A stretch of 64,000 nucleotides of DNA from Candidatus Bathyarchaeia archaeon (GCA_049972525.1 JBMFKI010000004.1:15879-79878); one strand, 5' to 3'; shown: positions 18,873 through 48,045, counted from the first letter of the stretch. Notes: generated from the letters alone by a model not told the origin. Numbers and translations: made by a program.

Positions 18873-18894
18873 TCATAGGGGGCGTGTAAAGGAC

Positions 18895-22455: not shown

Positions 22456-22459
22456 AAAA

Positions 22460-23537: not shown

Positions 23538-24992
23538 TTACCTTTCCACGGTTTTGAGCAGTTGCTTCTTGCTGTTGTAGATTTCTATTGTCAGTGGCAT
23601 CTGCCCAACCGCAAAATGCGTGGCGCATCCGAAACATGGGTCGTAAGCCCTAAAAGCCATCTCAACCATGTTAAGTATTGTATGGTCAACTTTGTCGCCG
23701 TGTATTAAGCCCTTAGCCGCATTCCTAATAGACATGTTTATGGATGGACTGTTATTAACCGTTGCAACTATCAGGTTCACATCCTTAATAAGCGCATTCT
23801 CATCCAAAACGTAATGGTGAATCAATGTCCCCCTCGCTGCTTCAACTACACCTATGCCCTCTCCTGGTTCGCCTGGCTTGTTGCGCACATCCTTGCTCGT
23901 TATTTCAGGATCTTTGCTCAATTCTAAGGCTCTCTCGGAAGCGTAAAGCAATTCGATAAGCCTAGCCCAATGATAGGCAAGCGTTGAGTGAACTGGTTTT
24001 CCGCCAAGCGTCTTATACATGAATTCATACTCCTCCTGCGCCAGTGGCGTTGCCATGCCATCTGCAGCGTTAAGCCTTCCAAGAGGCCCAACACGGTACG
24101 CACCACTTTCCGGACCGTCAATGAAGCCTTTCCATCCAATTTTCTTCAAATATGGAAACTTAACGTAAGTCCATTCTTCAACATGTTCACCAATGTGATC
24201 AAGATAGTCTTTAGCTTCGAACTTCAAGAACTCCATGCCATGCGGGTCTACCACCCTAATCTTGCCATCGTAAAAGTTCACATTGTTGTTTTCGTCAACT
24301 AACCCCATGTAATAGGTCTTCAGCGTGTACGCGTCGCTCCTAATCAAGTCGACGTATTTGCTGTTCCCGAGAACAAGGTCGTGGAAAAGCTTGAGCGAAA
24401 ACTTTGCAAAGTTCACAGTTGAAGAAGCCATTTTCTCAATTTCGCTCCGTTCTTCTTCGCTTAATGGCTTAGAGATTCCGCCTGGTAATCCACAGACAGG
24501 ATGCGTGGCTTTTCCGCCAATTATTTCCGTTATTCTTTGACCATAAGCCCTATGCTTTATGACTTCTTTGCCGATGTCTAATCCAGCCTTTTCAATGACG
24601 CCTATAATATTTCTTTTTTCCGGAGGAGCGTCTGGTCCGACTATAAAGTCTGGTCCACCCAAATAATAGAAGTGCAACGTGTGGTCATAAATAAAATAGC
24701 CGCAGTACATGAGCTCCCTAAGTTTTTTAGCCGCTGACGGTGGATCCACGTTGAACGCTGCATCTAAGGTTTTTGTTCCAGCCATGTGATGAGCTACTGG
24801 ACATACGCCGCAGATTCTACTCGTCAAAAGTGGCATATCCTCAGCTTTTCTTCCTATGCAAAACTTTTCGAAGCCTCTAAGCTCTGGAATTTGCATGTAA
24901 GCATTTTCCACTTCGCCTTCATCGTTTAGGAATATGGCTATTTTCCCGTGTCCTTCAAGCCTTGTTATCGGGTCGATGATAACCTTTTTCAT
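23538..24992 (-). CDS. mvhA: F420-non-reducing (Mvh-type) [NiFe] hydrogenase large subunit, copy 1
   Basis: RLEGHGKI, N-terminal Ni ligands RICGVCPVAH, C-terminal DPCFGCATH followed by a cleavable extension. Confidence 0.9.
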   Translation of the reverse strand: MKKVIIDPITRLEGHGKIAIFLNDEGEVENAYMQIPELRGFEKFCIGRKAEDMPLLTSRICGVCPVAHHMAGTKTLDAAFNVDPPSAAKKLRELMYCGYFIYDHTLHFYYLGGPDFIVGPDAPPEKRNIIGVIEKAGLDIGKEVIKHRAYGQRITEIIGGKATHPVCGLPGGISKPLSEEERSEIEKMASSTVNFAKFSLKLFHDLVLGNSKYVDLIRSDAYTLKTYYMGLVDENNNVNFYDGKIRVVDPHGMEFLKFEAKDYLDHIGEHVEEWTYVKFPYLKKIGWKGFIDGPESGAYRVGPLGRLNAADGMATPLAQEEYEFMYKTLGGKPVHSTLAYHWARLIELLYASERALELSKDPEITSKDVRNKPGEPGEGIGVVEAARGTLIHHYVLDENALIKDVNLIVATVNNSPSINMSIRNAAKGLIHGDKVDHTILNMVEMAFRAYDPCFGCATHFAVGQMPLTIEIYNSKKQLLKTVER

Positions 24993-25972
24993 TTTCTCAT
25001 AATCCTCCTTCGCAGAATTGAAGCTGGCAAAGCGTACATGTAAAACGTGCCAATTGGATCCTTTATTTGGCTGATCAGTTTTTCAACTTCCTCCTCTGTG
25101 TACTTCTCTTTCTCTTCCTCTAACCCCAATATGGAAGCTAAAGCGCTTATCATCGCAGCTCCCTGTTCTGGCGAGTTCGGGCATGGTCCACCGCATCCTG
25201 TGCATGGCATGTTAGCCTTTAGGCATCTTGCACTACATCCGCCTCTCGTGGCTGGTCCCATGCATATTATTCCCTGTTCAAGCAAGCATCTTTCAGGGTC
25301 CGGTGTCTTTTCATAAACCCTATATATCTTAGAGATTTTCTTGTTTTCTTTCTTTCTTGGACATTCATCACAAACCGATTTAAGTGGTGCTAGAACAGAA
25401 CCTTTAGGTGGCAATTCGCCCTTTGCTATAACGTCTAATGCGTAAAGTGTGCGTTCAACAGCTGGTGGGCAGCCCGGAACATAATAGTCCACGTCCACTG
25501 TTTGGTCAAGTGTTCTAACTGTATCGTAAAATTCTGGAATTTCTAATTCGCCTTCTTTAACAGTTACTTTTGGTTTCGGTACAGTTCCATTTGGGTTTAC
25601 CGTTGAAAATGTTGTTTTGTAAACTTTCTCGAAAATCTCCTCTTTATTGGTCATGTTTGCCAGTCCTGGGATACCGCCAAGTTGGGCGCAAGCACCATAA
25701 GCAACTAAAAATTTTGATTTTTGCCTTAGAAGTTTAGCCATGTGTTCTTGTTCGCTGTTGCGTATTCCACCGTTGAAGAAGCACACGTCTATGTATTTGT
25801 CTGGCATTTCTTCGACGTCTTTGTATTTTATGTCCATTGCAACTGGCCAGAAAACTATGTCAGCTAATTGTAAAACGTCCAGTATTTTCTCGTTTATGTC
25901 TAAAACTGCGATTTCGCAGCCTCCACAACTTGCAGCCCAATAGAATGCGAATTTCAATTTTGCTTTGGCCAT
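24989..25972 (-). CDS. mvhG: Mvh-type [NiFe] hydrogenase small subunit, copy 1
   Basis: FYWAASCGGCEIAVLD, GCPP, and distal cluster cysteines CMGPATRGGCSARCLKANMPCTGCGGP. It overlaps mvhA by 4 nt. Confidence 0.85.
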   Translation of the reverse strand: MAKAKLKFAFYWAASCGGCEIAVLDINEKILDVLQLADIVFWPVAMDIKYKDVEEMPDKYIDVCFFNGGIRNSEQEHMAKLLRQKSKFLVAYGACAQLGGIPGLANMTNKEEIFEKVYKTTFSTVNPNGTVPKPKVTVKEGELEIPEFYDTVRTLDQTVDVDYYVPGCPPAVERTLYALDVIAKGELPPKGSVLAPLKSVCDECPRKKENKKISKIYRVYEKTPDPERCLLEQGIICMGPATRGGCSARCLKANMPCTGCGGPCPNSPEQGAAMISALASILGLEEEKEKYTEEEVEKLISQIKDPIGTFYMYALPASILRRRIMRK

Positions 25973-25973
25973 C

Positions 25974-26867
25974 TTAATTCTCTCCTTTTTGAATTTGATT
26001 TAAAAGTTCGGATGGTTTCACTCTAAGCTCGTTTAATCCAAGTTCTTCTGGTGAAAAGCCCATGGCTAAGCCTAACAGTTGAGGATAGTGCAGAACTGGT
26101 ATGCCAAACTTTTCGTTAAAGGCTCTCTCTATTCTAGGCTGGTTCATATCAAACATCATGTGGCAGAAGGGGCAAGCCGTAATTAACGCTTGAGCCTTCA
26201 CTGCCCTAACGTGGTCAAGTTTTTCTTTAGCCATCTGGAATGGAACCTCCTCGTTTACGCCGATTATTGGATTTCCGCAGCATTCAGTTTCATCCATATA
26301 GTCCAAACACTGCGCACCAGTAAGCCTAATCAAGTTTTTAAGCAGCGTTGGATTTTCTGGGTCGTCGCCGTGTTTAACATATTTTGCTGGACGAACGAGG
26401 TGGCATCCTGAATGTTGGGCTACGGAAAGATTAGTTAATGGTCTCTTAACAGAATCCCTTATCTTCTCAAAGCCAACATCCTCAGCGAGCACATGAACAA
26501 GATGTTTAACTTCTATTGTCCCTTTGAACTCCATGCCAATTTCCTTTAAATGAGCGTTCACTTCTTCCCTCAGTTTCTTATCTTCTTTCAACATTTTGTT
26601 TGTTTCATTTAAACTGCAGAAGCATCCATTACAGAGTGTTAAAATGTTCAAGTTCTGTTGTTCTGCTACACAGAGGTTGCGTGCAGCCAAAGTTATCATT
26701 AAGTCATGGTTTATTGCGTCCATTGGGTATCCACAACAGTTAAACGTTGGCATCTCGACCAATTCTACGCCTAATTTGTCGAGGACTTTTCTCGCAGAAA
26801 TTTCGTAGCTCGAAAGTCTATATGGGATAACGCATCCCAGAAATATCAGATATTTTGGTTTTGACAT
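25974..26867 (-). CDS. hdrB: Heterodisulfide reductase subunit B-like (two CCG domains), copy 1
   Basis: FLGCVIPYR...NCCGYP...CNGC and SGCH...ECCGNP...CPFC, which are two complete CCG cysteine motifs. Confidence 0.85.
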   Translation of the reverse strand: MSKPKYLIFLGCVIPYRLSSYEISARKVLDKLGVELVEMPTFNCCGYPMDAINHDLMITLAARNLCVAEQQNLNILTLCNGCFCSLNETNKMLKEDKKLREEVNAHLKEIGMEFKGTIEVKHLVHVLAEDVGFEKIRDSVKRPLTNLSVAQHSGCHLVRPAKYVKHGDDPENPTLLKNLIRLTGAQCLDYMDETECCGNPIIGVNEEVPFQMAKEKLDHVRAVKAQALITACPFCHMMFDMNQPRIERAFNEKFGIPVLHYPQLLGLAMGFSPEELGLNELRVKPSELLNQIQKGEN

Positions 26868-26868
26868 T

Positions 26869-27423
26869 TCAGCTTTTCACCTTCTCAAAAGTTTTCACGT
26901 TTTCAAGTATTTTCGAGGAACCTGTAACTTCGAAGATTTTTGCAATTTCTTCCAGATTCGGCTTTGGCAACGGTGGAAGCCCAAGCTCCATCCTCTTTTT
27001 GTGGCGTGATTCCAAAATCTCGTATACATAGCCTCCCTTTAGAAGGTTAGATGCGAGTTCCCTGTAAACTAATGGCATGGCGCCTTTTTCCTTTACTGAA
27101 AGGTTTCGCAAAACACGTACTATGCCAGCAATTTCCACTCCTTGGGGACAGTGGTCAACGCATGTGAAGCATGATGAACATAGCCACAAGGCTTTATCCA
27201 GCAAAAGCCTATCCTTCAAGCCTAATTGGACCATGCGGGCTATTCGGCGTGGTCTGTAAAACTCGCTGAATCTTGCTATGGGGCAGTCAGCCGTGCATGT
27301 GCCACATTGGAAGCAAAGCATTATTCTTTCTGCACCATGCTTCTTGCTCATTTCATACTTAAATTTCAGGTTCATTTCCTCAGCTTTTATAACACTCGGA
27401 ACATATTCCTGTGCTTCACTCAC
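26869..27423 (-). CDS. hdrC: Heterodisulfide reductase subunit C-like (2x[4Fe-4S]), copy 1
   Basis: CFQCGTCTADCP and CSSCFTCVDHCP. 184 aa, 1-nt spacing to hdrB. Confidence 0.8.
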   Translation of the reverse strand: MSEAQEYVPSVIKAEEMNLKFKYEMSKKHGAERIMLCFQCGTCTADCPIARFSEFYRPRRIARMVQLGLKDRLLLDKALWLCSSCFTCVDHCPQGVEIAGIVRVLRNLSVKEKGAMPLVYRELASNLLKGGYVYEILESRHKKRMELGLPPLPKPNLEEIAKIFEVTGSSKILENVKTFEKVKS

Positions 27424-27859
27424 CTTGTTTTCCTCCCATTTTCAAAGGGTTTGGACCAAGCTTCTTAATCTGTTCAACCATGTCTCGGACTACGGCTGCA
27501 AATTTGTCTCCCTCGCCGGCGGAAACCCATTCCAGCCGCACACGTTCGGGTTCTATCCCAAAATCTTTAAGCACTTTCTTTAATAGCGTTACTCTTCGCA
27601 AAGCCTTAAAATTACCACTAAGATAGTGGCAGTCGGATGGAAGGTGGCAGCCAGCCACCAAAACACCGTCAGCTCCATTTTTCAAGGCTTCTATTATGAA
27701 GGCTGGGTCTATTCTTCCACTACACATAACGCGGATAACACGGATGTTCGGTGGGTATTGGATTCGACTTACACCAGCCAAGTCTGCACCAGCATAGGCA
27801 CACCAGTTGCATAGAAAACCAACAATTTTTGGTTCAAAATCCGTTTTGGCTTCGCTCAT
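27416..27859 (-). CDS. mvhD: MvhD (hydrogenase delta / [2Fe-2S] adaptor subunit)
   Basis: IVGFLCNWCAYAGADLAG...VMCSGRIDP...AGCHLPSDCHY is the canonical MvhD/FlpD pattern. 147 aa. It overlaps both neighbouring genes. Confidence 0.85.
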   Translation of the reverse strand: MSEAKTDFEPKIVGFLCNWCAYAGADLAGVSRIQYPPNIRVIRVMCSGRIDPAFIIEALKNGADGVLVAGCHLPSDCHYLSGNFKALRRVTLLKKVLKDFGIEPERVRLEWVSAGEGDKFAAVVRDMVEQIKKLGPNPLKMGGKQGE

Positions 27860-30800
27860 TTGGCAACCACCTCCATCTCCTTTAAGACAGCCCTAACCTG
27901 GGCGAGAATCTCCTCAGTTGTGAAGTGCCCGAGGGTTATGGCCTTTGTTGGGCATGCTGTTCCGCAGACTCCGCAGCCCTTACACAAGGCTTCAATCACA
28001 TGGGCAACCACTTTGCCATCTTTCTCCTTCATCTCAATCGCACTGTAGGGGCATAGAAATTCACAGATTCTGCATCCACTACATAAATCTTCATCTACAC
28101 TTGCCACGATTCCTTCCATTTCAAGGGCTTTCTTCGAAAGTATTGTGGCTGCTCTTGCTGCGGCTGCACATGCTTGGGAAATGCTCTCCTCAATGTATTT
28201 TGGCGAGTGAGCCATTCCGCATAGGAAGACACCGTCCGTCTGGAAGTCCACTGGGCGAAGCTTCATGTGCGCCTCCAAGAAGAAGCCATCCTTTGTCAGT
28301 GGCACTTTTAGCATTTCGGCTATGCGCTTATTGTCTGGGTTAGGGATGGTTGCGGCACTTAAAATGACGTAGTCTGGCTCCAACTGAACCTCTTGCTTCA
28401 ATACCGGCTCGCAGAAGGAGACTTTCAGCTTTCCGCCCTCTTTTGTGACTTTTGGCTTGCTTTCGTCTGAATAGTTTATGAAGATGACGCCTTTGGCTGC
28501 TGCCTCCCGGTAGTACTCCTCCTTAAAGCCGTAACTCCTAACATCCTTGTAGAGGACGTAAACATCAACGTCTGGGTTAAGCTCCTTAATCTTCAAAGCG
28601 TTTTTGATGGCTTGCCCACAGCATATACGTGCACAGTTGGGGCGCTCCTCGTTCCTTGCGCCAACACACTGAATCATAACAACTTTTTTGGCTTTGAACT
28701 CGCCTTTGGCAATTTTCTCCTCCAACTCGTGCTGGGTCATGACTCTGGGGTCTTCGCCATACAAGTATTCTTTTGGCTTATACTCAACGGCACCAGTTGC
28801 AACAATGACTACACCATGCTCCACCAGTTTTTCCTCGCCACTGCTCAGCCTTATTTTTGATTTGAAGTTGCCGATGAAACCGCTTACCTCCATAACCTCC
28901 GCGCCTAAATAAACGTGGATAAGCTTGTTTTCCATAACAGCCCTAACAAGCCTCTTCAAGTGCTCCTGTGGGTCTTCGCCCTCAAGCAAGTAATAGATTT
29001 TCCTTAAGTGTCCGCCAAGCTCCTTTTCGCGTTCAACAAGGTGAACCTCAAAGCCTTGGTTGGCTAATTCTAGCGCTGCGGTCATCCCTGAGACCCCACC
29101 ACCAATTACGAGTCCTGCTGGAGTGACATTGACTGTCGGGTTTTTCAGCGGTTTTAGAAGCCTCGCCTTTGCGACGACGGAGCGGACGAGGTCTTTTGCT
29201 TTTTCAGTTGCCGCATCTGGCTCGTGCATGTGAACCCAGCTGCACTGGTCTCGGATGTTTGCCATCTCGAATAGGTATGGGTTTAGGCCAGCCTCTCGGA
29301 GGGTTTCTCTGAAAAGCGGTTCATGGGTTCTTGGCGTGCATGAAGCCACAACAACACGGTTTAGGTTGTACTCCTTAATCTTCTCCCTAATCCGCTTCTG
29401 GGTGTCATCTGAACAAGTGTAAAGGTTATCCTCGGCATAAACAACATTCGGAAGCTTTTTGGCGTATTCTACAACTTCTGGAACCCGGACTATTCCGCCT
29501 ATGTTTATGCCGCAGTGGCATATGAAAACGCCTATGCGGGGCTCTTCTTGGCTAACGTCCCGTTCTGGCGGATACTCCTTAACGGTTATGAGCTTGCCAC
29601 GTTCTGGGGCTATTATTGCCATGGCTTTCGCTGCGGCGCCACTCGCTTGGGCAACACTTTCCGGAATATCCTTAGGCGAGCTGAAGGCTCCGCAAACGTA
29701 TATGCCTGGCTTTGAAGTTTCTAGCGGTGTGAAGGTATTGGTTTCGCAGAAGCGGTACTTGTTGAGCTTTATGCCTAAAGCCTTGGCTAGTTTTTCCACG
29801 TCCTTTGGAGGTTGCATTCCGGTGGAGAGCACAACCATGTCGAACTCCTCAACCCGTGGAGTTTCATCCTCTCCAACATAGTGCACAAGCAAGTTGCAGG
29901 TCGCTGGGTCTTCGGTTATGCTGGCAACCCTTGAACGCACAAAATGGATGCCATACTCCTCCTGAGCCCGCTTATAGTAGGCGTCAAACTCCTTACCATA
30001 AGCCCTAATATCCATATAGAAAATCGTACAGTCCAACTTTGTTGGCACGTGTTCTTTGGCTATAATGGCTTCCTTAATGCTGTACATGCAACAAGCAGCA
30101 GAACAATAATTGTTCCCAAGCTGAGCATCCCGAGAACCAACACACTGTACAAAGGCAATTTTTCGTGGAATCTCGCCGTCAGAAGGTCTCAAAACAATCC
30201 CGCCGTAGGGTCCAGAAGCGCTCAGTATGCGTTCGAACTCTATGCTTGTCACAACATTTGCGTATCGCCCATAACCATACTCGCTCTTAAGCCGTGCATC
30301 AAAGGGTTCAAAACCGGGAGCCAAAATCACAGCGCCAACATTTAGAACAATTTCGCTGTCTTTCTGGTCATATTCAACGGCGTTCGCCTTACAAACCTCT
30401 TGACATGTTCTACAACCAATGCATTTTTCGCGGTCTATTTTGAAGCGTAGTGGAACTGCCTGTGGAAATTCGACGTAGACGGCGCTTCTGTCCGTTAACC
30501 CCTTATTGTAGGTGTCTATGGCTTCAACGGGGCATTTTTGTGCACAAAGCCCACAACCATTACATTTTTCCTCGTTTATGTAGCGGCTTCTTTTTCGAAT
30601 CTTCACTTCGAAGTTTCCAGCCTCACCGCTTAAGCCCAGCACTTCGCTGTTCGTAATTAAGGAAATGTTGGGATGCCTCCCAGCAGCAACAAGCTTAGGA
30701 GCCAAAATACACATTGAACAGTCATTTGTTGGAAAAGTCTTGTCCAATTGAGCCATAACACCGCCGATGCTGGGCGACTGGTCAACCATGTACACTTTAA

Positions 30801-30888
30801 AGCCTGAATCAGCCAAGTCTAAGGCCGCCTGTATTCCAGCAACGCCTCCGCCTACAACAAGAACTGCTCCTACTTTTCCTTCAGCCAT
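27856..30888 (-). CDS. hdrA: Tandem-fused HdrA-like flavoprotein (1010 aa, two FAD modules)
   Basis: Module 1: VVGGGVAGIQAALDLA, FPTNDCSMCIL, and an inserted ferredoxin (CNGCGLCAQKCP, CIGCRTCQEVC). Next comes the canonical HdrA N-domain IGVFICHCGINIGG...ASCTPR...DQCSW. Module 2: VIGGGVSGMTAALELA, without the inserted ferredoxin. The C-terminal ferredoxin has CSGCRICEFLCP and CKGCGVCGTACP. Confidence 0.85.
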   Translation of the reverse strand: MAEGKVGAVLVVGGGVAGIQAALDLADSGFKVYMVDQSPSIGGVMAQLDKTFPTNDCSMCILAPKLVAAGRHPNISLITNSEVLGLSGEAGNFEVKIRKRSRYINEEKCNGCGLCAQKCPVEAIDTYNKGLTDRSAVYVEFPQAVPLRFKIDREKCIGCRTCQEVCKANAVEYDQKDSEIVLNVGAVILAPGFEPFDARLKSEYGYGRYANVVTSIEFERILSASGPYGGIVLRPSDGEIPRKIAFVQCVGSRDAQLGNNYCSAACCMYSIKEAIIAKEHVPTKLDCTIFYMDIRAYGKEFDAYYKRAQEEYGIHFVRSRVASITEDPATCNLLVHYVGEDETPRVEEFDMVVLSTGMQPPKDVEKLAKALGIKLNKYRFCETNTFTPLETSKPGIYVCGAFSSPKDIPESVAQASGAAAKAMAIIAPERGKLITVKEYPPERDVSQEEPRIGVFICHCGINIGGIVRVPEVVEYAKKLPNVVYAEDNLYTCSDDTQKRIREKIKEYNLNRVVVASCTPRTHEPLFRETLREAGLNPYLFEMANIRDQCSWVHMHEPDAATEKAKDLVRSVVAKARLLKPLKNPTVNVTPAGLVIGGGVSGMTAALELANQGFEVHLVEREKELGGHLRKIYYLLEGEDPQEHLKRLVRAVMENKLIHVYLGAEVMEVSGFIGNFKSKIRLSSGEEKLVEHGVVIVATGAVEYKPKEYLYGEDPRVMTQHELEEKIAKGEFKAKKVVMIQCVGARNEERPNCARICCGQAIKNALKIKELNPDVDVYVLYKDVRSYGFKEEYYREAAAKGVIFINYSDESKPKVTKEGGKLKVSFCEPVLKQEVQLEPDYVILSAATIPNPDNKRIAEMLKVPLTKDGFFLEAHMKLRPVDFQTDGVFLCGMAHSPKYIEESISQACAAAARAATILSKKALEMEGIVASVDEDLCSGCRICEFLCPYSAIEMKEKDGKVVAHVIEALCKGCGVCGTACPTKAITLGHFTTEEILAQVRAVLKEMEVVAK

Positions 30889-30891
30889 CTT

Positions 30892-31638
30892 TTATCGCAC
30901 CTCCAAAGCCTTATACAATGGTGTGTAACCTTCAACATGGTCTAGGGCTATCATACCCTTCCGTCGCATGTTGGTTATGTGCCTCAAAACGGCAGAGGGC
31001 TTAATCCCAAGAATTTGGGCTAACTCCTTAACAGAGCGTGGCTTAACCCTTGTCAAGTAGTGAATTTTGTAGCGGATGAACTCAGCCCTAACAATATCGT
31101 CCAATAAGGCGTCAAACTCTTCTTCTGATATTTTCTCGCCGTAGGCGTTCATGAATTCGGTTAGCTCTTCTTCTCTCCCCAGTAAAACGCGGAGTCTAAA
31201 GGCTGAGGTTGCCTCCTTAGCCGCTGTGAGGTTAGCTAAAAGCTCCTCCTTCCCCAGTGGAGAGTTTCCAAGCTTCCAAACTTCTTCTGAAAACTCCTTG
31301 GCATAGTGGCTGAAGCCTTTATCCTCCAAAGGTGAAACCAGAAGAAGCTTCAACCTTTCAGGCTCAAGTTCAGCCAAAGCCAACAATTTCTTCAACATTT
31401 TAACTGCTCGTTCCGCATGGAGGTTTCCGTCGACAAAGTGGCAGTCTGGAGGCTTGCATCCGACAAGTAAGATACCATCTGCTCCGTTAATGAAGGTTTC
31501 AAGAACAAGTGCTTGGTCCATTCTCCCAACACACATAACGCGGATAATGTTAACGTTGTATGGAACACGCATTTCTTCTTCGCAGAAAGTCCAGTTGCAC
31601 ATGAAACAAACAATTTTTGGTGGGTTAGAAGACTCCAT
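30892..31638 (-). CDS. MvhD-type domain fused to a C-terminal winged-helix DNA-binding domain
   Basis: The N-terminal 120 aa align with MvhD (IVCFMCNWTFC...VMCVGRMD...VGCKPPDCHF...LEPERL). The C-terminal SVKELAQILGIKPSAVLRHITNMRRKGMIALDHVEGYTPLYKAL has a MarR/ArsR-like wHTH pattern. Confidence 0.65.
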   Translation of the reverse strand: MESSNPPKIVCFMCNWTFCEEEMRVPYNVNIIRVMCVGRMDQALVLETFINGADGILLVGCKPPDCHFVDGNLHAERAVKMLKKLLALAELEPERLKLLLVSPLEDKGFSHYAKEFSEEVWKLGNSPLGKEELLANLTAAKEATSAFRLRVLLGREEELTEFMNAYGEKISEEEFDALLDDIVRAEFIRYKIHYLTRVKPRSVKELAQILGIKPSAVLRHITNMRRKGMIALDHVEGYTPLYKALEVR

Positions 31639-31645
31639 TCCAATT

Positions 31646-33361
31646 TCACCTCTCCATGGCTGTTAAAACCATGGTTAGAATCTGCTCGTTGGAAAGCTTC
31701 TTCATGGTTATGGCTCTTTCTGGGCATCTTGCAGCACACAAGCCGCAGCCCTTGCAAAGCTCCTCGTCCACTTGAGCTACACCCTTCTCATTCTTTTTGA
31801 TGGCGCCAACTGGACATACGACCGCGCAGACGTTGCAGCCCACACACTTGCCCTCGTCAACAACAGCCTTATCGCCCTCGCACAAGTCCATGCTTGCGAG
31901 GCACTCGGCACACGGTCCACATCCCAAACAGCGGAAAGCCTCAAATCTTGCTTGACGCTTCAGCTTTTCAAGATATTCCCTCGCCTCCTCAAAGCTTAAG
32001 TGAGGCTTTTCCAGTGGAGGTTCGTATCTGCGCTCCTTCTTTTTAACGTAACCCCAATTCTTAACCCACGTCGTCTCCTCAATCTTCTCTTCTCTCGCGA
32101 TTCTTGGGTCTTGTCCGCGAAGGTAAAGGTGAATGGAAACCGCCGCTTTTTTGCCTGCTCCAACAGCCTCAATTATGTTTGCTGGTCCAGTAGCCATGTC
32201 GCCTCCAGCGAAAACACCCTTCACGTTTGTTTCCATAGTTGTAAAGTCAACTTTTATTGAAGGCGCTCTTGCCTCTTTGTCTAGGAGTTCTGGCGGCACA
32301 CATGACAATTCTAGAACTTGTCCAAGCGCGGGTATGACCATGTCAACCTCGTACTGATGCTCTGAAAAGCTTATTGGAATTGGCTTTCTTCTTCCGCTTT
32401 TGTCTGGCTCACCGAGCCGCATCCTTAAGCATTCAACAGCCTTAACCTTGCCATTTTCGCCTATTATCTGCTTTGGCGCAACCAAAAAGTAGAATTTAAC
32501 GCCGTCTCTTTCGGCTTCTGCTATCTCATGTGGCAATGCGGGCATTTCCTCGCGTGAGCGCCTATACAATATTATAACTTCTTTTGCACCAAGCTTCTTT
32601 GCGGTTCTCGCCGCGTCTATGGCTGTGTTTCCGCCGCCTATGACGGCAACTCGCTCTCCAACTTTTATTGGCTCGCCGAGCGATATAGCCCTCAAAAAGT
32701 CAACAGCGTTTACTACACCTTCAAGTTCTTCGCCTGGAACGTTCAATTTCATTCCCTTTTGTGTGCCAATTGCAAGGAAAATTGCCTTGTAGCCATCTTT
32801 GCGTAGGCTTTCAAGTGTTATGTCCTTTCCAAATTCCACGCCAGTCTTTATTTCCACGCTCAAATCTTTTATGTAGGCTATTTCATTCGTCACAACAAAC
32901 TTTTCAAGGCGAAAGTTTGGTATGCAGTAGCGCATCATCCCGCCAGGTTCAGCCATCCGCTCAAAAACAGTTACTGGATAACCGAGTTTTGCAAGTTCGT
33001 AGGCTGCTGTTAAGCCCGCTGGTCCAGCGCCTATTATGGCAACTTTTTCGCTGTATTTTTTGGGTATTGGTTCTGGCTTTACGCGACCTTGTTCTCTTTC
33101 AATGTCCGCCACAATTCTTTTTAGTGCACGTATTGCTACTGCTTGGTCAACGTTTGTTCTTGCACATGCGTCTTCGCATGGGCTGAAGCATACGCGTCCG
33201 CAGATTGCTGGGAATGGCATGTCCTTGCGTATGATTTCTACAGCTTCTCTGAATTTGCCTCTTTGAATTAGTGAGACGTATCCTTGAACGTTTACGTGGG
33301 CTGGGCATGCAGAGCGGCATGGCGGTAGTTTCTTTACTTTTGTTTGGTTATTATTTGTCAT
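31646..33361 (-). CDS. GltD/NfnB-like NAD(P)H-binding FAD oxidoreductase with C-terminal 2x[4Fe-4S] ferredoxin domain
   Basis: N-terminus CRSACPAHVNVQGY...ICGRVCFSPCEDAC, then [12 protein letters not shown] and VIGGGNTAIDAA. The C-terminal extension has CLGCGPCAEC, CVGCNVCAVVCP and CKGCGLCAARCP. Confidence 0.8.
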   Translation of the reverse strand: MTNNNQTKVKKLPPCRSACPAHVNVQGYVSLIQRGKFREAVEIIRKDMPFPAICGRVCFSPCEDACARTNVDQAVAIRALKRIVADIEREQGRVKPEPIPKKYSEKVAIIGAGPAGLTAAYELAKLGYPVTVFERMAEPGGMMRYCIPNFRLEKFVVTNEIAYIKDLSVEIKTGVEFGKDITLESLRKDGYKAIFLAIGTQKGMKLNVPGEELEGVVNAVDFLRAISLGEPIKVGERVAVIGGGNTAIDAARTAKKLGAKEVIILYRRSREEMPALPHEIAEAERDGVKFYFLVAPKQIIGENGKVKAVECLRMRLGEPDKSGRRKPIPISFSEHQYEVDMVIPALGQVLELSCVPPELLDKEARAPSIKVDFTTMETNVKGVFAGGDMATGPANIIEAVGAGKKAAVSIHLYLRGQDPRIAREEKIEETTWVKNWGYVKKKERRYEPPLEKPHLSFEEAREYLEKLKRQARFEAFRCLGCGPCAECLASMDLCEGDKAVVDEGKCVGCNVCAVVCPVGAIKKNEKGVAQVDEELCKGCGLCAARCPERAITMKKLSNEQILTMVLTAMER

Positions 33362-33467
33362 TTTTAAATCATCTTAGGAATAATTCTATGAGCCTCTTCG
33401 AATATATTAGTGCATTTACGCTAAAATTGACACATATTTAACATAAAAAGAAAAGGAGAAAAATAGT

Positions 33468-34058
33468 TTATTCTCGAAGTCTTCCTTCAAGTTTGCTTAC
33501 CCATTTATTGTATTCACGGGCGCCCAACAACTTTTTAAGTTCCTGCTCCAGAGTTAGCGAGTTGTTAGGCTTAATTTCCACAATCCATCCTTCGCCGTAT
33601 GGGTCTTCATTAACTAAGTTTGGCTCATTTTTCAGTTTCTCGTTCACTTTAACTATTTTGCCGCTTACTGGTGCATATAGGTCAAACATGAACATCCATG
33701 TTTCTGCAACGCCGAATGGCTCCATATGACTTATTTCCTTTCCAACAGGTTCAGTCATTATGTTCGCTATGCCTTTCAAATGTCTCTGCGCGTAATCTGA
33801 AACGCCCACTCTAATGTTTCCCTCTGGCGTCACCTGTGCCCATGTGTGCTTTGGCGTGTACAGAAGAAGCTCAGGCGTTAAAAGCAATTCCTTTCGTTTT
33901 TCCGCTGGTATCCCCTCCGCACGCATCAGGTCTTCGAGGCGTAGGCGGATTGCTTCTGAAACGAATTCTGATATGCTTCTGTAGCGCCCCGTTTTGATTG
34001 CTTCTTCAATCTGTTTTATTAGTTCTTGTCTTATGCTTACGGTTTTCCATTCAGACAT
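33468..34058 (-). CDS. Ribbon-helix-helix domain fused to a GcvH-like (lipoyl-carrier fold) domain that lacks the lipoyl lysine
   Basis: N-terminus VSIRQELIKQIEEAIKTGRYRSISEFVSEAIRLRLEDL is CopG/RHH-like. The C-terminus YTPKHTWAQV...VGVSDYAQ...GVAETWMFMFDLYAPVSGKIVKVN...EDPYGEGWIVEIK is GcvH-like. M124 (33693-33695) sits where GcvH has the lipoyl Lys (ESVK). The ATG at 34058 lies 9 nt after GGAGGA. The track ORF starts at TTG 34064. Confidence 0.65.
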   Translation of the reverse strand: MSEWKTVSIRQELIKQIEEAIKTGRYRSISEFVSEAIRLRLEDLMRAEGIPAEKRKELLLTPELLLYTPKHTWAQVTPEGNIRVGVSDYAQRHLKGIANIMTEPVGKEISHMEPFGVAETWMFMFDLYAPVSGKIVKVNEKLKNEPNLVNEDPYGEGWIVEIKPNNSLTLEQELKKLLGAREYNKWVSKLEGRLRE

Positions 34059-34064
34059 TTCCAA

Positions 34065-34183
34065 TCATCCTCCTTTACAGCTGAATTATATATAGCATAA
34101 GCGTCAAATATATATCTGGTGCATATATTTTATATTATAGTAAATACAATATATAAATTCAGACGGAAAATAATACATTGAAA
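34065..34183 (-). promoter_or_regulatory. AT-rich intergenic region with four TATATA-type elements upstream of the RHH-GcvH-like gene (candidate promoter/operator)
   Basis: ATATAT(A) cores lie near 34088, 34108, 34123 and 34150. GGAGGA is at 34068-34073 on the minus strand. At least one element is placed to act as the archaeal TATA box. Confidence 0.3.
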
Positions 34184-34456
34184 CTATTCCTTAGATTCCC
34201 TTCCAAAACTTAGCAAATTCCAAACACGCTCATGAAAATAATAAAGAACTGTTTTAAAAACGAGTTCAGATATTCCAACAATGCCGCCTAAAGTCCAGTC
34301 TCCCTTACTAAAGATTACAACCAAAAGAATCGTTGTTAAAGTTGCTACAATTCTCCACGAAATAGTCTTTGCCAAACTTCTAACTGGTTTTTCCAAACTC
34401 AAAATCTCCTCTTCAAAAGTAGAGTATTCAAAACCATAATTAAACTTTTGATGCAC
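34184..34456 (-). CDS. Small membrane protein, DUF2061-like
   Basis: C-terminal SLAKTISWRIVATLTTILLVVIF...GGIVGISELVFKTVLYYFHERVWN resembles DUF2061. The track ORF extends to 34594 but would overlap the divergent gene at 34525. An internal GTG at 34456 is a more plausible start. The start remains uncertain. Confidence 0.45.
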   Translation of the reverse strand: MHQKFNYGFEYSTFEEEILSLEKPVRSLAKTISWRIVATLTTILLVVIFSKGDWTLGGIVGISELVFKTVLYYFHERVWNLLSFGRESKE

Positions 34457-34524
34457 AGAAACAGAAAAATATAGGCCCTGTATAAAAGCATGTACAGTAA
34501 ATACTATATAAACGGTGAAAACTT

Positions 34525-35601
34525 TTGGAAAGTAGAAAAGTACAAAAAGTAGGCTACTCAACCTTAACAGTTTCACTTCCAAGTGAATGGGCAAAACAGA
34601 ATAACATTAACCCAGGAGACCTAGTTTTCATGATGCCTGAAAGGGATGGGACACTAAAGATCATGCCAAGTCAATTTGCACTAAAAGAAGAAGCAGAAGA
34701 ATATGTGATAAATGCTGATGCTTGCGACGAAAATGGAATGCTTGAAAGAATAATTGTTGGAAGTTACATGCTTGGAAGAGACGTTTTAAGGGTTGTATCT
34801 TCAACGAGAATAAGCAAAGTACATGTGGATGAGGTTAGAGGAATCGTTCCTAAACTAATTGGTCTCGGAATTTTGGAGGAAACACCAAAAAGTGTGCTGT
34901 TGCAATGTTCAGTTGACCCGTCAAAATTCAAACTTGACATGCTGATTAGGCGTTTATCCCTAATTGCCTCAACAATACTTTCAGAGGCGATGCAGGCCTT
35001 CCTAGAAGGCAAAGAGGACTTGGCGATCGAAGCCATCAGCCGTGAAGACGAAGCTGATACAATTTATTACCTTGCTGTTCGCCTGTTGCTTTCTGCGCAG
35101 GCTAAACCAGAAATAGCAGAGCAGATAGGTGCGACGGATGTCCTTTTCATTCCGGCAACGAGGCTTATACTCCAATATTTAGAGTTAATCGCAGATTACT
35201 CTGAAGATATAGCCAAAAAAATTGTTGAGCTAAAGATTTACCGTAACAGAATTCCAGCAGACATCGTGCAGAGAATTTACCACATTGGCGAGCTAGCTCA
35301 AACAATCTTTCAGAAAGCCTTAGACTGTATTTTTACGCGAGACCTTCGCGTAGCCAATGGAGTTTTGGAAATGAAGGAGGTTCTAGAAAGAGAGGCTGAA
35401 AGACTAATGCACGAAGCTCCTGAAATTCCATACTTAAGAGCTTACATTTCATGCCTAACAAAAATCGCAGACAAAGGCGCAACGATTGCGGATATAGCCA
35501 TAAACAGAGCCCTTGAGCAGCCTAAGAAAGATGTAGAGAACATTGTCCGCATGGTAAAACATGTGCGCTCAATTCCCTTATCGACGAAAAAGGAACAGTA
35601 A
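34525..35601 (+). CDS. AbrB/SpoVT-domain plus PhoU-repeat regulator (archaeal phosphate-uptake-regulator-like)
   Basis: N-terminus KVQKVGYSTLTVSLPSEWAKQNNINPGDLV follows the AbrB-type swapped-hairpin pattern. Two PhoU-like helical repeats follow. TTG start. Confidence 0.7.
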   Translation: MESRKVQKVGYSTLTVSLPSEWAKQNNINPGDLVFMMPERDGTLKIMPSQFALKEEAEEYVINADACDENGMLERIIVGSYMLGRDVLRVVSSTRISKVHVDEVRGIVPKLIGLGILEETPKSVLLQCSVDPSKFKLDMLIRRLSLIASTILSEAMQAFLEGKEDLAIEAISREDEADTIYYLAVRLLLSAQAKPEIAEQIGATDVLFIPATRLILQYLELIADYSEDIAKKIVELKIYRNRIPADIVQRIYHIGELAQTIFQKALDCIFTRDLRVANGVLEMKEVLEREAERLMHEAPEIPYLRAYISCLTKIADKGATIADIAINRALEQPKKDVENIVRMVKHVRSIPLSTKKEQ

Positions 35602-35689
35602 AAATTGCTTCATTTATGATTTAGTTTTGACACAAGAAGCCTTAAGTGCATGTATGTAAATATTGTAAATATGGAGAGGCTTGAGATAG

Positions 35690-36157
35690 ATGAGTAGTTT
35701 TGAGGAAGCCCTCCGAAATATAGATGTTTTCTGCAGAGTTTTAGTGAAGAAGATTGCTGAAAGCGAGGAAGATAAAAGCGACATCCTTGTGGAGCCTATG
35801 GAGAAGCTCCTTTACAAGAAATACATAATAAGCGAACAAGTAGAACCAAGTCCAGCGAAACATTTAATTCCGCTGCCACAACTTGAGGAACCTCTCATAG
35901 ATGTTTTTGAGGATGAAAGCTACGTTAAAATTCTAATACAGTGTAGATGCAAGGATCAAAAGATAACGGTTCACATGGATGTGGACGGTATAGAAATCTG
36001 CAACAAAGTATGCCATAAAAGGGATGATGGAAACGAAGTTTGCGTTGACGAGTGTAGGAAGTTAACGCTTCCAGTTGAACACTTGAAAATTGAGAGCATG
36101 ATTACAAAGTGCAATAATAATGAAGCATTTGAAATAGAAATTCCAAAAGGAAACTGA
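35690..36157 (+). CDS. Hypothetical Cys-rich protein with possible Hsp20/alpha-crystallin-like core
   Basis: EPLIDVFEDESYVKILIQ...ITVHMDVDGIEI...LTLPVEHL...NNNEAFEIEIPK loosely follows the ACD strand pattern, with a Cys-rich insert (CNKVCH...CVDEC). Confidence 0.3.
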   Translation: MSSFEEALRNIDVFCRVLVKKIAESEEDKSDILVEPMEKLLYKKYIISEQVEPSPAKHLIPLPQLEEPLIDVFEDESYVKILIQCRCKDQKITVHMDVDGIEICNKVCHKRDDGNEVCVDECRKLTLPVEHLKIESMITKCNNNEAFEIEIPKGN

Positions 36158-36177: not shown

Positions 36178-36378
36178 TTATTGCTGACTTTCCTCTCTTC
36201 GCCTTATTCTACCTCTGCATTTTTCTTCTTCGCTGCATTTCATACAAGTGTAAATTACGTCGAACTCGCTTTTGCTTGGGTTTGACGGATTTACGAAAAA
36301 CGCGAAGCATTCTTCACCTTTCTTTATTGTAGCTCCGCAACAAAAGCACTTATGCTCTTTAAGGGCGGTTACTTTCAT
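36178..36378 (-). CDS. Small zinc-ribbon protein (hypothetical)
   Basis: 66 aa with CFCCG...CMKC cysteine pairs and a basic tail. It occupies an otherwise empty interval. Confidence 0.35.
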   Translation of the reverse strand: MKVTALKEHKCFCCGATIKKGEECFAFFVNPSNPSKSEFDVIYTCMKCSEEEKCRGRIRRREESQQ

Positions 36379-36475: not shown

Positions 36476-37351
36476 TTAGCCTATTTTGCTGAGCACTGGG
36501 TCTAATTTTACTTTGTGAAATTCAGGTGCAAGCTCTTTTGGATTTACACCCAAGCTTATGCTTAAAAGTTCAGCGTAGTGTATTACGGGTATATTGTATT
36601 CTTCTTTGTATGTTGTTTTTATCAGCATTTGCCCAAGGTCTAACGTTAGGAAACAGAATGGACAAAGCGTTGATATACAGTCGGCTCCAACCCTAGAGGC
36701 GTTAACGATTTTGTCTCTTGCTATGGCTAAAGCCACATCGTCAGCATAACCCCTTAAAAGACCACCGCAACATTTCAGCTTATTCCTATACCAGATGCTT
36801 TCAGCACCTATAGCCTCAACCAAATTGTCGAAGATTTTCGGGCGCTCTGGGTCGTCAAACCTTAGAAGGGCGCTTGGTCTTAGTAGGTGGCATCCAGAAA
36901 AGGCTGCAACCTTAAGTTTGCTCAGTGGCTTCGTTACGTTTTTCTTTAGGTTGTTTACGCCAATATCGTTCATCAAAACTTGGAGGTAGTGCCGCACTTC
37001 CTTGTTTCCCTTAAATTCTTTCCCAACATTTGAAAGGATTTTGTTAACCCTCTTCTTTAGTCCTTGCTTTTCTTTAAGGAGGGTGTTTGCCATCGCAAGT
37101 GATTCGAAGCATCCCGTGCACAAAGTAACGATGTTAAGATCTGCTTCTTCGGCTAGACAGATGTTGTACGCTGCAATTGCCAAGCTTGTTTCTAGGTCTA
37201 TTGACTGTAATGGTGGCGGAGCGCAGCACGTCATTTTTTCCAAATCTACGAGTTCTATTCCAAGTTTTGTTAGGGATTTTCGTGCTGCCAATTCGTAATG
37301 CGGTTGCCGCGCGGGTATCGTGCAACCCAAAAATAAAGCATAGCTCGTCAC
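36476..37351 (-). CDS. hdrB: Heterodisulfide reductase subunit B-like, copy 2 (divergent)
   Basis: FLGCTIPAR...TCCAPP...CTGC (first motif has CCA instead of CCG) and SGCH...KCCGG...CPFC. It is only distantly similar to copy 1. Confidence 0.8.
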   Translation of the reverse strand: MTSYALFLGCTIPARQPHYELAARKSLTKLGIELVDLEKMTCCAPPPLQSIDLETSLAIAAYNICLAEEADLNIVTLCTGCFESLAMANTLLKEKQGLKKRVNKILSNVGKEFKGNKEVRHYLQVLMNDIGVNNLKKNVTKPLSKLKVAAFSGCHLLRPSALLRFDDPERPKIFDNLVEAIGAESIWYRNKLKCCGGLLRGYADDVALAIARDKIVNASRVGADCISTLCPFCFLTLDLGQMLIKTTYKEEYNIPVIHYAELLSISLGVNPKELAPEFHKVKLDPVLSKIG

Positions 37352-37866
37352 TACGTCTCACCCTTCTTAAACTGGATTTTGTCGAACTCCGTTGCCGAAA
37401 GAATTTTTTTCACGGCTTCGACGCCTGCTGGCTTAAGCGGTGGCAAACCGTATTCTGCCCGCTTTTTCTCAAGGAATTTCGACATTTGAACTATGCGCCC
37501 TTCGCTTGCAAGCCCAGCTGCAAATTCCGAGTAGATGTTTGGTATGTTTCCCTCGCGGATGGCCATGTTTCTTAAGGCATAAATTACGTCGGCTACTTCG
37601 ACCTTTTGTGGACAACGTTCTTGGCAGTTATAGCACGAAGAACAGAGCCATATGGCATCGCCGGATAAGACTTCATCCCTTAACCCAAGAAGCGCCAACC
37701 TAATGACTTCTCTCGGATTGTATTTTTCTGTTATTTTTGCCACTGGGCAGCTTGCGGCGCATGTTCCACACTGATAGCATAGGGTTATCGTTTCTCCGCC
37801 AAGTCTGCTAGTAATCTCTTTGGCGAAATTCTTTGCGAATGGTTTCGTTTGCGTTTCCTCTGCCAT
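37351..37866 (-). CDS. hdrC: Heterodisulfide reductase subunit C-like, copy 2
   Basis: CYQCGTCAASCP and CSSCYNCQERCP. 1-nt overlap with hdrB copy 2. Confidence 0.8.
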   Translation of the reverse strand: MAEETQTKPFAKNFAKEITSRLGGETITLCYQCGTCAASCPVAKITEKYNPREVIRLALLGLRDEVLSGDAIWLCSSCYNCQERCPQKVEVADVIYALRNMAIREGNIPNIYSEFAAGLASEGRIVQMSKFLEKKRAEYGLPPLKPAGVEAVKKILSATEFDKIQFKKGET

Positions 37867-37888
37867 AGCGTTTATTCTCCTCTCTGGT

Positions 37889-40312: not shown

Positions 40313-41766
40313 CTTTTTATTTCTCTAATTAACTGCCTCTTATTATCGTAAATTTCAATTTCCATTGGCATTTGTCCAACCGCAAAATGCGTGGCGCATG
40401 CAAAGCATGGGTCGTAAGCCCTAAAAGCCATCTCAACCATGTTCAATACTCCATCGGTGACGCTTCCCTCTTTTATCAGCGCCTTCGCGGCATTCTTTAT
40501 TGATATGCATATGCTTGGTGCATTATGCGTTGTAGCCACGATCAGGTTAACTTTTTTGGCTAAGGCTTTCTCGTCAAGTATGTAATGGTGGATAAGTGTT
40601 CCCCTTGCAGCCTCAACTATGCCAACGCCTTCACTTGGCTTTCCAGGCTTATTCCTAATATCTTTGCTTGTTATTTCAGGGTCTGTTACAAGCTCTAATG
40701 CACGTTCAGCTGCATACAGAAGCTCTATTAGCCTAGCCCAGTGATAAGCTAAGGTATTGTGGACTGGTTTTCCGCCGAGGGTTTTATACATTCTTTCGTA
40801 TTCAGCCTGTGCCAAAGGAGTTGCCATGCCATCTGCGGCGTTAAGCCTTCCAAGAGGCCCAACACGGTAAAGCCCGCTTTGCGGTCCGCCAACCAAGCCT
40901 TTCCATCCAATTTTCTTTAAGTATGGCAGTTTCACGTACGTCCACGGTTCCACATGCTCTTCAATCACGTTTAGGTATTCTTTCGGTTTGAATTTCACAA
41001 ACTCTTTCCCATAGGGGTCAACAACACGTACATCGCCGTCATAAAAGTTTACATGGTTGTTCTTGTCAACTAAGCCCATGTAGTAGGTTTGCAACGTGTA
41101 GGCTTCGCTTTTTATAAGGTTTACATAGTCCGTGTTTTTCAGCACTATGTCGTCGAAGAGTTTTAAGCTAAATTTTCCAAATTCAAGACAGCTTCTAACC
41201 ATCTTTTCAATTTCCCGCCTCTCCTCTTCGGACAATGGTTTTGAAATGCCTCCTGGTATGCAAGCGCTAACTGGATGCGTTGCCTTCCCGCCTAGAATCT
41301 CTGTTATCCTTTGCCCGTAAGCTCTATGCTTTATGACTTTTTTGCCAATTTCTAGTCCAGCTTTTTCTATGACGCCCAAAACATTTCGCTTTTCTGGCGG
41401 TGCGTTTGGTCCTACGACGAAATCTGGTCCACCTAAATAGTAGAAGTGCAATGTGTGGTCGTAAATAAAGTAGCCACAATACATGAGTTCGCGGAGTTTT
41501 TTGGCTGTTTCTGTTGGCTCAACATTGAATGCTGCATCTAAGGCTTTTGCGCCTGCCATGTGGTGTGCAACTGGGCATACGCCGCAGATTCTCGTTGTTA
41601 TTATTGGTAGATCTTCAGCTCTTCTTCCCTCGCAGAACCTTTCGAAGCCTCTTAATTCTGGAACTTGGAAGTAAGCTTCCTCCACGTTTCCAGCGTCGTT
41701 CAAGAATATTGTTATTTTTCCGTGTCCCTCAAGCCTTGTGATTGGGTTTATAACTATCTCCTTCAT
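40309..41766 (-). CDS. mvhA: Mvh-type [NiFe] hydrogenase large subunit, copy 2
   Basis: RLEGHGKI, RICGVCPVAH, DPCFACATH. By eye it is roughly three-quarters or more identical to copy 1. Confidence 0.9.
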   Translation of the reverse strand: MKEIVINPITRLEGHGKITIFLNDAGNVEEAYFQVPELRGFERFCEGRRAEDLPIITTRICGVCPVAHHMAGAKALDAAFNVEPTETAKKLRELMYCGYFIYDHTLHFYYLGGPDFVVGPNAPPEKRNVLGVIEKAGLEIGKKVIKHRAYGQRITEILGGKATHPVSACIPGGISKPLSEEERREIEKMVRSCLEFGKFSLKLFDDIVLKNTDYVNLIKSEAYTLQTYYMGLVDKNNHVNFYDGDVRVVDPYGKEFVKFKPKEYLNVIEEHVEPWTYVKLPYLKKIGWKGLVGGPQSGLYRVGPLGRLNAADGMATPLAQAEYERMYKTLGGKPVHNTLAYHWARLIELLYAAERALELVTDPEITSKDIRNKPGKPSEGVGIVEAARGTLIHHYILDEKALAKKVNLIVATTHNAPSICISIKNAAKALIKEGSVTDGVLNMVEMAFRAYDPCFACATHFAVGQMPMEIEIYDNKRQLIREIKR

Positions 41767-41767
41767 T

Positions 41768-42703: not shown

Positions 42704-42832
42704 TTCTGCACCAGCTTGACATTCAATAAAGTGTTGATAATCACATTTCTATGATTTAAATTTAGCCATAGTAAATAGAGAAAATATTATGAGAAAGTAA
42801 ATTATATTTAAGGCATTTTTAACGCATACCGC

Positions 42833-45806: not shown

Positions 45807-48037
<2,231 letters not shown>

Positions 48038-48045
<8 letters not shown>

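Follow-up and report, generated by a model that had tools for sequence, protein, structure and literature searches.

A putative transcriptional regulator of Bathyarchaeia that joins a predicted ribbon-helix-helix motif to an H-protein fold without its lipoyl lysine

A gene on the minus strand of a 64,000-nt stretch of DNA from a Candidatus Bathyarchaeia archaeon (GCA_049972525.1, JBMFKI010000004.1:15879-79878; hereafter the window) encodes a protein in which a predicted N-terminal ribbon-helix-helix (RHH) motif precedes a domain with the fold of the glycine-cleavage H-protein, GcvH, whose lipoyl lysine has been lost. The architecture of this RHH-GcvH-like protein, the loss of the lysine, the purifying selection on the gene, its neighbourhood and the conserved cis-elements around it are matters of observation. 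From sequence and by analogy, the protein is slightly more probably than not a NikR-style transcription factor, in which the H-protein fold would have been exapted as a sensor or oligomerisation domain. A preliminary description of this stretch had already proposed a regulatory or sensory role, and this is the best-supported reading. It is favoured by the matches to RHH models, by a separate promoter and a terminator-like run, by a constant regulatory neighbour with which a palindrome is shared, by the variability of the downstream operon and by the existence of tandem and fused paralogues.

The H-protein fold and the lost lysine

The gene had been described as an open reading frame (ORF) starting with TTG at 33468..34064. 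The minus-strand ORF of 198 aa was confirmed, but the ATG at 34058 is more likely to be the start than the TTG at 34064, because the Shine-Dalgarno sequence GGAGG (34069-34073) lies 10 nt from the former and 4 nt from the latter and because the N-terminus MSEWK is found in 104 of 121 close homologues. Numbering follows the resulting 196-aa form, in which the residues described earlier as Met124, K136 and K139 are M122, K134 and K137. The ratio of nonsynonymous to synonymous substitution (dN/dS) between pairs of relatives is below 0.07 in both domains wherever dS can be estimated, synonymous sites being otherwise saturated, and the gene is under strong purifying selection.

The C-terminal domain can be assigned to the GcvH fold with confidence from sequence profiles and from structural modelling. 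Pfam GCV_H (PF01597) matches residues 65-188 with E=2.7e-31, and a phmmer search against PDB sequences retrieves the GcvH of Mycobacterium tuberculosis at 3.8e-24. When the 108-sequence family alignment was given to AlphaFold2 (AF2), the domain was modelled with a predicted local distance difference test (pLDDT) score of 87-96, and Foldseek superimposed the model on solved H-proteins with TM scores of 0.91-0.94 and root-mean-square deviations of 1.1-1.9 A. The GcvH-like C-terminus of the preliminary description is thereby borne out.

The same holds for the replacement of the lipoyl lysine. HMMER pairs 'fgvaetwmfmfdlyap' of the window protein with 'fgevestksvsdlyap' of M. tuberculosis GcvH, and it follows from this alignment that the lysine has been replaced by methionine, as had been claimed for the codon at 33693-33695, which reads ATG and corresponds to M122. 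Since the lysine is lost, the domain is predicted not to be lipoylatable at the hairpin site. K134 and K137 were considered as alternative lipoylation lysines and rejected; both align to the strand that follows the PVSG motif, away from the hairpin tip, and therefore neither of them restores a lysine to the lipoylation hairpin.

Comparison with relatives extends this result from one protein to a family. Lysine occupies the hairpin position in 99% of 80 canonical GcvH sequences and was found there in none of the RHH-fused family members, searched among representatives at 50% identity and among the relatives; these carry M, W, L, P, F, S or C instead. Although ETWMF is unchanged across the 121 close relatives, other members with an RHH have hairpins such as ETWWF, ETWLS, ETVARWPLVIHD and ETPGWWYL. 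Judging from these paralogues, methionine is not a hallmark of the family, and it is the tryptophan preceding the lysine position that is common (invariant in the 121 close relatives, 73% of a mixed set). Further differences from the 80 canonical sequences concern the change of S-V-K-A to T-W-x-F and of LGD to LK(G/E), the loss of the ELP motif, and a net charge of the core of -1.2 for this clade and -4 for the paralogue clade, compared with -9.5 for canonical GcvH. The acidic surface by which GcvH docks has been lost.

Could the protein still carry a cofactor, lipoyl or another acyl group, on some other residue, and act as a GcvH- or LbpA-type shuttle for Hdr? Its fold is intact, 83% of family members have K134, and the subfamily model NF002270 passes its cutoff (121.5 against 117 bits), which is why PGAP names the protein GcvH. 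Nevertheless, a carrier role is highly improbable. There is no lysine between E119 and D126, and K134 lies away from the turn that lipoate ligases recognise. The window protein contains zero cysteines, and the stricter equivalog model TIGR00527 gives 102.1 bits, under its cutoff of 115.85. The only gene of the biotin-protein ligase (BPL) family in the window, at 15901-16578, was considered as a lipoate ligase and rejected, for it encodes a biotin-protein ligase (TIGR00121, 2.5e-58). Finally, a true GcvH with the lysine coexists with the lysine-less form at one related locus. No gcvT, gcvP, lpd, lipoate ligase or lipoate synthase gene was found among the ~37 ORFs scanned in the window.

The N-terminal ribbon-helix-helix motif

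The preliminary description had assigned the N-terminus to a CopG-type RHH motif at about residues 8-48, and sequence models place such a motif at residues 6-42. Pfam RHH_1 matches this segment with E=4e-4 and 20.6 bits (cutoff 20.5), and when family members are taken one by one, 42 of 108 give a match. In the same segment, an NCBIfam ParD antitoxin model reaches 8.5e-7. When isolated N-termini were compared with NCBIfam, a ParD-family antitoxin model gave the best match (4.4e-7), while YlcI/YnfO models matched 21 of 28 members, NikR models 14-19 and the haloarchaeal CdrS model 11. The four NCBIfam RHH families match in one common register, and the NikR models are confined to residues 6-44. 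A profile of the family also aligns TVRIRQELVEEIEKEVEKGQYQSLSEFVSEAIRLRL with the RHH of Helicobacter pylori NikR (residues 14-49; E=0.018). Residues typical of DNA-reading RHH motifs, namely the polar strand residues and the S-x-SE helix cap, are conserved in the family. A comparison by hhalign of the N-terminal profile with one CopG sequence returned a probability of 3%, which carries no information since only a lone sequence served as template. The assignment is marginal for each model and consistent across several.

As the best NCBIfam match is an antitoxin of the ParD/CopG type, the protein might be taken for the antitoxin of a type II toxin-antitoxin pair. This reading is scarcely credible and was rejected because no toxin gene is present: the neighbours, in conserved synteny, encode DUF2061, AbrB-PhoU and GltD-like proteins, and the C-terminal domain has the GcvH fold.

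Promoters and a palindrome shared by two genes

The gene is preceded by a conserved promoter block (Table 1). Over the 92 nt upstream of the start, identity between loci is 65-79%, compared with 33-40% at fourfold-degenerate sites and 24-42% in more distal upstream sequence of the same loci. The block contains a 12-bp palindrome with the family consensus TAGTATTTACTA. Allowing at most one mismatch, this consensus has 61 matches in the 615 kb of sequence from related loci. Almost all of these are at two positions, either 12-22 nt upstream of the start of the AbrB-PhoU gene or 86-109 nt upstream of that of the RHH-GcvH gene; the remaining loci retain the palindrome core GTATTTAC. When the two genes are adjacent, one palindrome serves both, whereas loci with a DUF2061 gene in between, the window among them, retain two copies. 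This retention points to a control element shared by the two genes.

On the other side of the gene, the short region before the downstream operon contains a T-rich terminator-like run and a TAATATAT box, which is the separate predicted promoter of that operon. The presence of a promoter block of its own, followed by the T-run and by a separate TAATATAT box, indicates that in this clade the RHH-GcvH-like gene would form its own transcription unit.

A constant regulatory neighbour and a variable operon

The neighbourhood was compared in 80 metagenome loci and in ~17 loci from GTDB genomes and other assemblies; counts out of 56 and 50 refer to metagenome loci with enough flanking sequence. In 55 of 56 loci, the gene next upstream, in divergent orientation, encoded an AbrB-PhoU protein. 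Downstream, the GltD-like gene followed directly in 39 of 50 loci and the same operon followed an inserted or variant gene in 5 more (44/50). TauE and a Hox-type hydrogenase cluster with NuoE-, NuoF- and NuoG-like genes and the NiFe small and large subunits took this place in 5/50, and an unrelated gene in 1/50. At one genome locus (L082), no hdr genes were found downstream. The downstream enzymes therefore vary, most of them being hydrogenase- and NAD(P)H-linked, and since they vary (Mvh-Hdr, Hox-type, unrelated) while AbrB-PhoU is nearly always present, the constant partner is this predicted regulator. The preliminary description had stressed the vicinity of an hdr cluster; the gene does stand at the head of a HdrABC-MvhDGA cluster, but it is AbrB-PhoU rather than Hdr that is constant.

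Several features recur around these genes. The DUF2061 gene is present in only part of the loci of the family. A 155-aa ORF without a family match (35690-36157) always follows the AbrB/SpoVT-PhoU gene (34525-36157 together, plus strand), and a Cys-rich 66-aa ORF (36178-36378, minus strand) is often near it. In one sublineage (L132:6673-12590, also L006, L117, L131, L135 and L137), the RHH-GcvH and AbrB-PhoU genes stand before TauE, of the sulfite-exporter family, and the Hox-type NAD(P)-linked NiFe hydrogenase cluster. A third paralogue, encoded elsewhere in the genome (L166), likewise has TauE and DUF2061 on its flanks.

Distribution and paralogues

A word-indexed search returned 1340 relatives. 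The best 120 of them have 196-202 aa and 85-99% identity; those named by source are all from Bathyarchaeia or Bathyarchaeota, and most are labelled 'glycine cleavage system protein GcvH'. When representatives at 50% identity were searched exhaustively, only 17 clusters scored below 1e-30, and full-length matches in GTDB, with one genome per species, were found in 11 species, all Bathyarchaeia. The family thus appears to be confined to this group. One member is labelled 'Baldrarchaeota'; the label is probably a binning artefact, because the gene adjoins one whose protein is 89% identical to its Bathyarchaeia counterpart.

A second, more divergent paralogue clade is encoded directly upstream of the first in some lineages, and a natural fusion of two paralogues, 417 aa long, occurs in two independent assemblies. 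Both arrangements, tandem and fused, would fit the obligate pairing of RHH motifs.

Ordinary H-proteins are also present in Bathyarchaeia. A gene at L051:1203-1529 (minus strand) encodes a genuine GcvH that stands alone and keeps the lysine of ESVK, and other Bathyarchaeia also have an ESVK GcvH. The coexistence of this gene with the lysine-less form at L051 identifies the RHH protein, as far as sequences tell, as a neofunctionalised paralogue and not as a lineage-wide peculiarity of GcvH. The L051 gene is divergent from a second mvhGA-hdrACB cluster and lies 8.5 kb from the lysine-less RHH form of the same species, within one 12-kb stretch; a lipoylatable GcvH beside a Mvh-Hdr cluster recalls the pairing of LbpA with sulfur-oxidising Hdr-like (sHdr) systems.

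Lysine-less GCV_H domains were also seen in other architectures (P0132, P0252, P0139): three in tandem with a FAD-oxidase, a Fer4 and two CCG (HdrD-like) domains, one with a TIR domain and one with a MoCF_biosynth fragment. A CMD/AhpD-like gene (PF02627) lies between two genes for lysine-less GCV_H proteins at L164:8651-9022 and L165:8651-9022. In mycobacteria, lipoyl domains reduce proteins of the AhpD family, and for that reason the juxtaposition would be curious.

A predicted two-gene regulatory module

The protein would be a transcription factor of the RHH class, apparently specific to Bathyarchaeia, with a cofactor-less H-protein fold exapted as its C-terminal domain. By analogy with NikR, two N-terminal RHH motifs would pair into a DNA-reading ribbon, as a homodimer in the window and as a heterodimer in the lineages with tandem or fused paralogues. 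The H-protein-like domain, which would expose the Trp/Met/Phe hairpin, may modulate DNA binding through oligomerisation, a ligand or a partner. AbrB-PhoU and the RHH-GcvH-like protein would then form a conserved two-gene regulatory module, probably self-controlled through the common palindrome TAGTATTTACTA and probably controlling redox operons linked to hydrogen and NAD(P)H, which are Mvh-Hdr with a GltD-like subunit here and the Hox-type hydrogenase elsewhere. DNA binding, the assignment of the protein to the palindrome, the regulated targets and the signal are what we infer in this scheme.

As to the signal, one speculative idea, which we regard as improbable, is that the dead domain mimics a lipoyl or thiol carrier. 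Such a mimic would attach reversibly to the Hdr/GltD-like or hydrogenase-diaphorase complex, or bind the substrate of Hdr in these non-methanogenic archaea, and the RHH would couple the redox state or occupancy of the enzyme to transcription, as a PutA-like trigger. In a variant of this idea, the W-M-x-M hairpin of this clade would be a site for a soft metal or a small ligand, making the protein a NikR-like sensor for hydrogenase operons.

A number of observations weigh against the regulator, beginning with DNA binding itself, which is a prediction. The RHH match is marginal for every single model, RHH_1 included (20.6 vs 20.5 bits). In the profile search of the PDB, a spurious match to the VASP coiled coil (0.007) comes ahead of NikR (0.018), and for this reason the NikR match is given little weight. 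For the monomer and for P0121, the natural tandem fusion, single-chain AF2 forms no ribbon and draws the N-terminus as a low-confidence helix (pLDDT 38-72). The strand of an RHH forms only between two chains, and isolated RHH chains are commonly mis-modelled, so that a helical N-terminus in a single-chain model says little about the motif. As for the palindrome, AbrB-PhoU may be the protein to which it belongs, or it may be a promoter element that is symmetric or bidirectional and TATA-like. When TAGTATTTACTA was sought before the hdr operon, it was absent; the TAATATAT box is preceded there by a different, weaker and variable small palindrome, yTAA-N2-4-TTAr, exemplified by CGTTAAATTTAACG, GCTAATTTTAGC and GCTAAGTTTAGC. 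In the lineages with two paralogues, the gap to the operon is 58-79 nt without a visible TATA box, which indicates that these genes are probably co-transcribed with the enzyme genes. Lastly, the RHH-GcvH-like protein is as conserved as the enzyme subunits, which is unusual for a regulator.

The last two points would be expected of an accessory or structural subunit. According to this explanation, the H-protein-like domain would be an adaptor for HdrB, the GltD-like subunit or the diaphorase of the hydrogenase, docking there in the way that LbpA or GcvH does on its own enzyme, and the RHH would serve for dimerisation only. The lysine-less GCV_H fused to FAD-oxidase and CCG (HdrD-like) domains in P0132, from another organism, is in keeping with such a role, and the association of GcvH-like proteins with Hdr-like enzymes has a precedent in LbpA (PMC6067878). 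An adaptor is the main rival but unlikely: the downstream operon changes from Mvh-Hdr to Hox-type or to none while AbrB-PhoU stays, a promoter of its own and a terminator-like T-run accompany the gene in this clade, the DNA-reading residues of the RHH are conserved, and the acidic docking surface of GcvH is lost.

The helical AF2 model and the nearly universal pairing with AbrB-PhoU could also be read in another way, namely that the protein acts without DNA, by direct contact with AbrB-PhoU or with a linked transporter (DUF2061, TauE), the RHH-like segment being merely helical. The recurrence of DUF2061 and TauE nearby, even around the third paralogue, would agree with this. Several independent RHH models, however, match residues 6-42 in register, and the frequent mis-modelling of isolated RHH chains takes weight from the AF2 helix; regulation by contact is therefore considered doubtful. 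On the whole, a DNA-binding RHH regulator accounts best for the evidence.

Genes and elements of the window

The features of the gene and of its surroundings are collected in Table 1.

Table 1. Position of the RHH-GcvH-like gene, its domains, the associated cis-elements and the neighbouring genes in the window
Feature	Position	Strand	Remarks
RHH-GcvH-like coding sequence	33471..34058	-	196 aa from ATG 34058; stop 33468-33470
Predicted RHH motif, residues ~4-45, WKTVSIRQELIKQIEEAIKTGRYRSISEFVSEAIRLRLEDL	33924..34049	-	Pfam RHH_1 and NCBIfam models
H-protein (GCV_H) fold domain, residues ~62-190, predicted not lipoylatable	33489..33875	-	Pfam, PDB sequence search, AF2, Foldseek
Hairpin E119-T-W-M-F-M-F-D126, replacing lipoylation hairpin E-S-V-K-A-V-S-D	33681..33704	-	Met codon 33693-33695
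Conserved promoter block, ~90 nt	34065..34155	-	TATATAT-type boxes 34107-34115 and 34086-34095; GGAGG 34069-34073
Candidate-operator palindrome TTGTATTTACTA	34138..34149		~91 nt upstream of ATG
Second palindrome copy (TAGTATTTACTG on minus strand)	34495..34506		19 nt upstream of AbrB-PhoU start
Intergenic region	33362..33467	-	T-rich terminator-like run 33445-33463; weakly palindromic element ~33419-33430; TAATATAT box 33401-33410
DUF2061 small membrane-protein gene, between the PhoU and RHH-GcvH genes	34184..34400	-	True start uncertain; homologues ~66-70 aa
AbrB/SpoVT-PhoU, 358 aa, predicted DNA-binding	34525..35601	+	Pfam MazE_antitoxin and PhoU
Downstream operon	23538..33361	-	Eight genes
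GltD-like NAD(P)H flavoprotein with ferredoxin domains	31646-33361	-	
MvhD-wHTH (MvhD and ArsR-like winged helix)	30892-31638	-	
HdrA	27856-30888	-	
MvhD	27416-27859	-	
HdrC	26869-27423	-	
HdrB	25974-26867	-	
MvhG	24989-25972	-	
MvhA	23538-24992	-	

The first of the two MvhD ([2Fe-2S] FlpD) genes of the downstream operon encodes a fusion to a winged helix (HTH_5, 2.4e-5; NF033788, 3e-5). The fusion is kept in every related locus; the protein may bind DNA and sense redox state through its iron-sulfur centre, or the winged helix may be structural. Further out, the window has a dense redox island (17172-22966 and 36476-54200) with genes for a TfrAB-like thiol:fumarate reductase, an aldehyde:ferredoxin oxidoreductase and a second mvhGA-hdrACB cluster, together with an ACS-GNAT fusion (936 aa), NfnAB-like genes, Fer4-MvhD, a thioredoxin-reductase-like and an HdrD-like gene and an HdrA-MvhD fusion. 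The biotin-protein ligase gene adjoins a gene of the glyoxalase family that is maybe a methylmalonyl-CoA epimerase (15901-16985, minus strand).

Implications

No description of an architecture joining an RHH to the GcvH fold was found in the searchable literature. The combination with a cofactor-less H-protein seems to be undescribed, and such an effector domain seems to be unprecedented for an RHH regulator. If the proposal is true, it will provide a clear case in which a transcription factor has taken over the fold of a cofactor carrier, the H-protein, for its effector domain. The conserved module of RHH-GcvH-like protein, AbrB-PhoU and a defined palindrome before HdrABC-MvhADG operons would also offer an experimental handle on the role of Hdr in non-methanogenic Bathyarchaeia. 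There is, in addition, a consequence for annotation. PGAP and IMG wrongly label more than 1000 such proteins as 'glycine cleavage system protein GcvH', and where annotation is the sole basis for scoring gcvH, this mislabelling could lead to the glycine-cleavage or reductive-glycine pathway being inferred too often for Bathyarchaeia.

Comparison with known systems

With GcvH (PF01597, TIGR00527), the protein shares the barrel-sandwich hybrid fold (TM 0.91-0.94, 30-40% identity) and the core motifs HxW, PxSG..N and DPY..GW. It differs in the absence of the lipoyl lysine, in the altered LGD and ELP motifs, in a charge of about -1 instead of about -9.5, in the N-terminal RHH, in its score under the equivalog cutoff and in a gene context without gcvT or gcvP. 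By the lack of the hairpin lysine and by the equivalog score, it is not a GcvH.

LbpA is likewise a GcvH-like protein encoded beside hdr genes. Its lysine is strictly conserved, two conserved cysteines are usually present, and it is encoded with lipoate-maturation genes in the sHdr clusters of sulfur oxidisers (Cao et al. 2018, PMC6067878). Here, by contrast, the hairpin has no lysine, the protein lacks cysteine and carries an RHH, and its gene stands at a cluster of the HdrABC-MvhADG hydrogenase type. From these sequence features, the protein is not an LbpA, and the idea in the preliminary description that it descends from the lipoate carrier of sHdr systems finds no support in them; the best family matches, moreover, are to ordinary GcvH models.

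Divergent H-protein or hybrid-motif folds that work outside glycine cleavage offer another comparison: GcvH-L of Streptococcus and Staphylococcus, RnfC_N and NqrA_N. GcvH-L is lipoylated and ADP-ribosylated, RnfC_N and NqrA_N belong to membrane redox complexes, and none of them has an RHH. The structure 5a35 was obtained as a structural match with E=5.5e-6.

Among RHH proteins, NikR provides the closest parallel, with an N-terminal RHH of ~45 aa followed by a separate C-terminal domain, and also in context, as NikR acts around hydrogenase and nickel. Its C-terminal domain, however, is an ACT-like, nickel-binding tetramerisation domain, whereas the window protein has a GcvH fold without a His/Cys metal site. 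In PutA and other 'trigger enzymes', as here, an RHH is attached to a module taken from metabolism, which allows the state of an enzyme or partner to control DNA binding; PutA keeps its catalytic domains and flavin, while the window protein has no recognisable cofactor site. The likeness to NikR and PutA, drawn by analogy, is one of design only.

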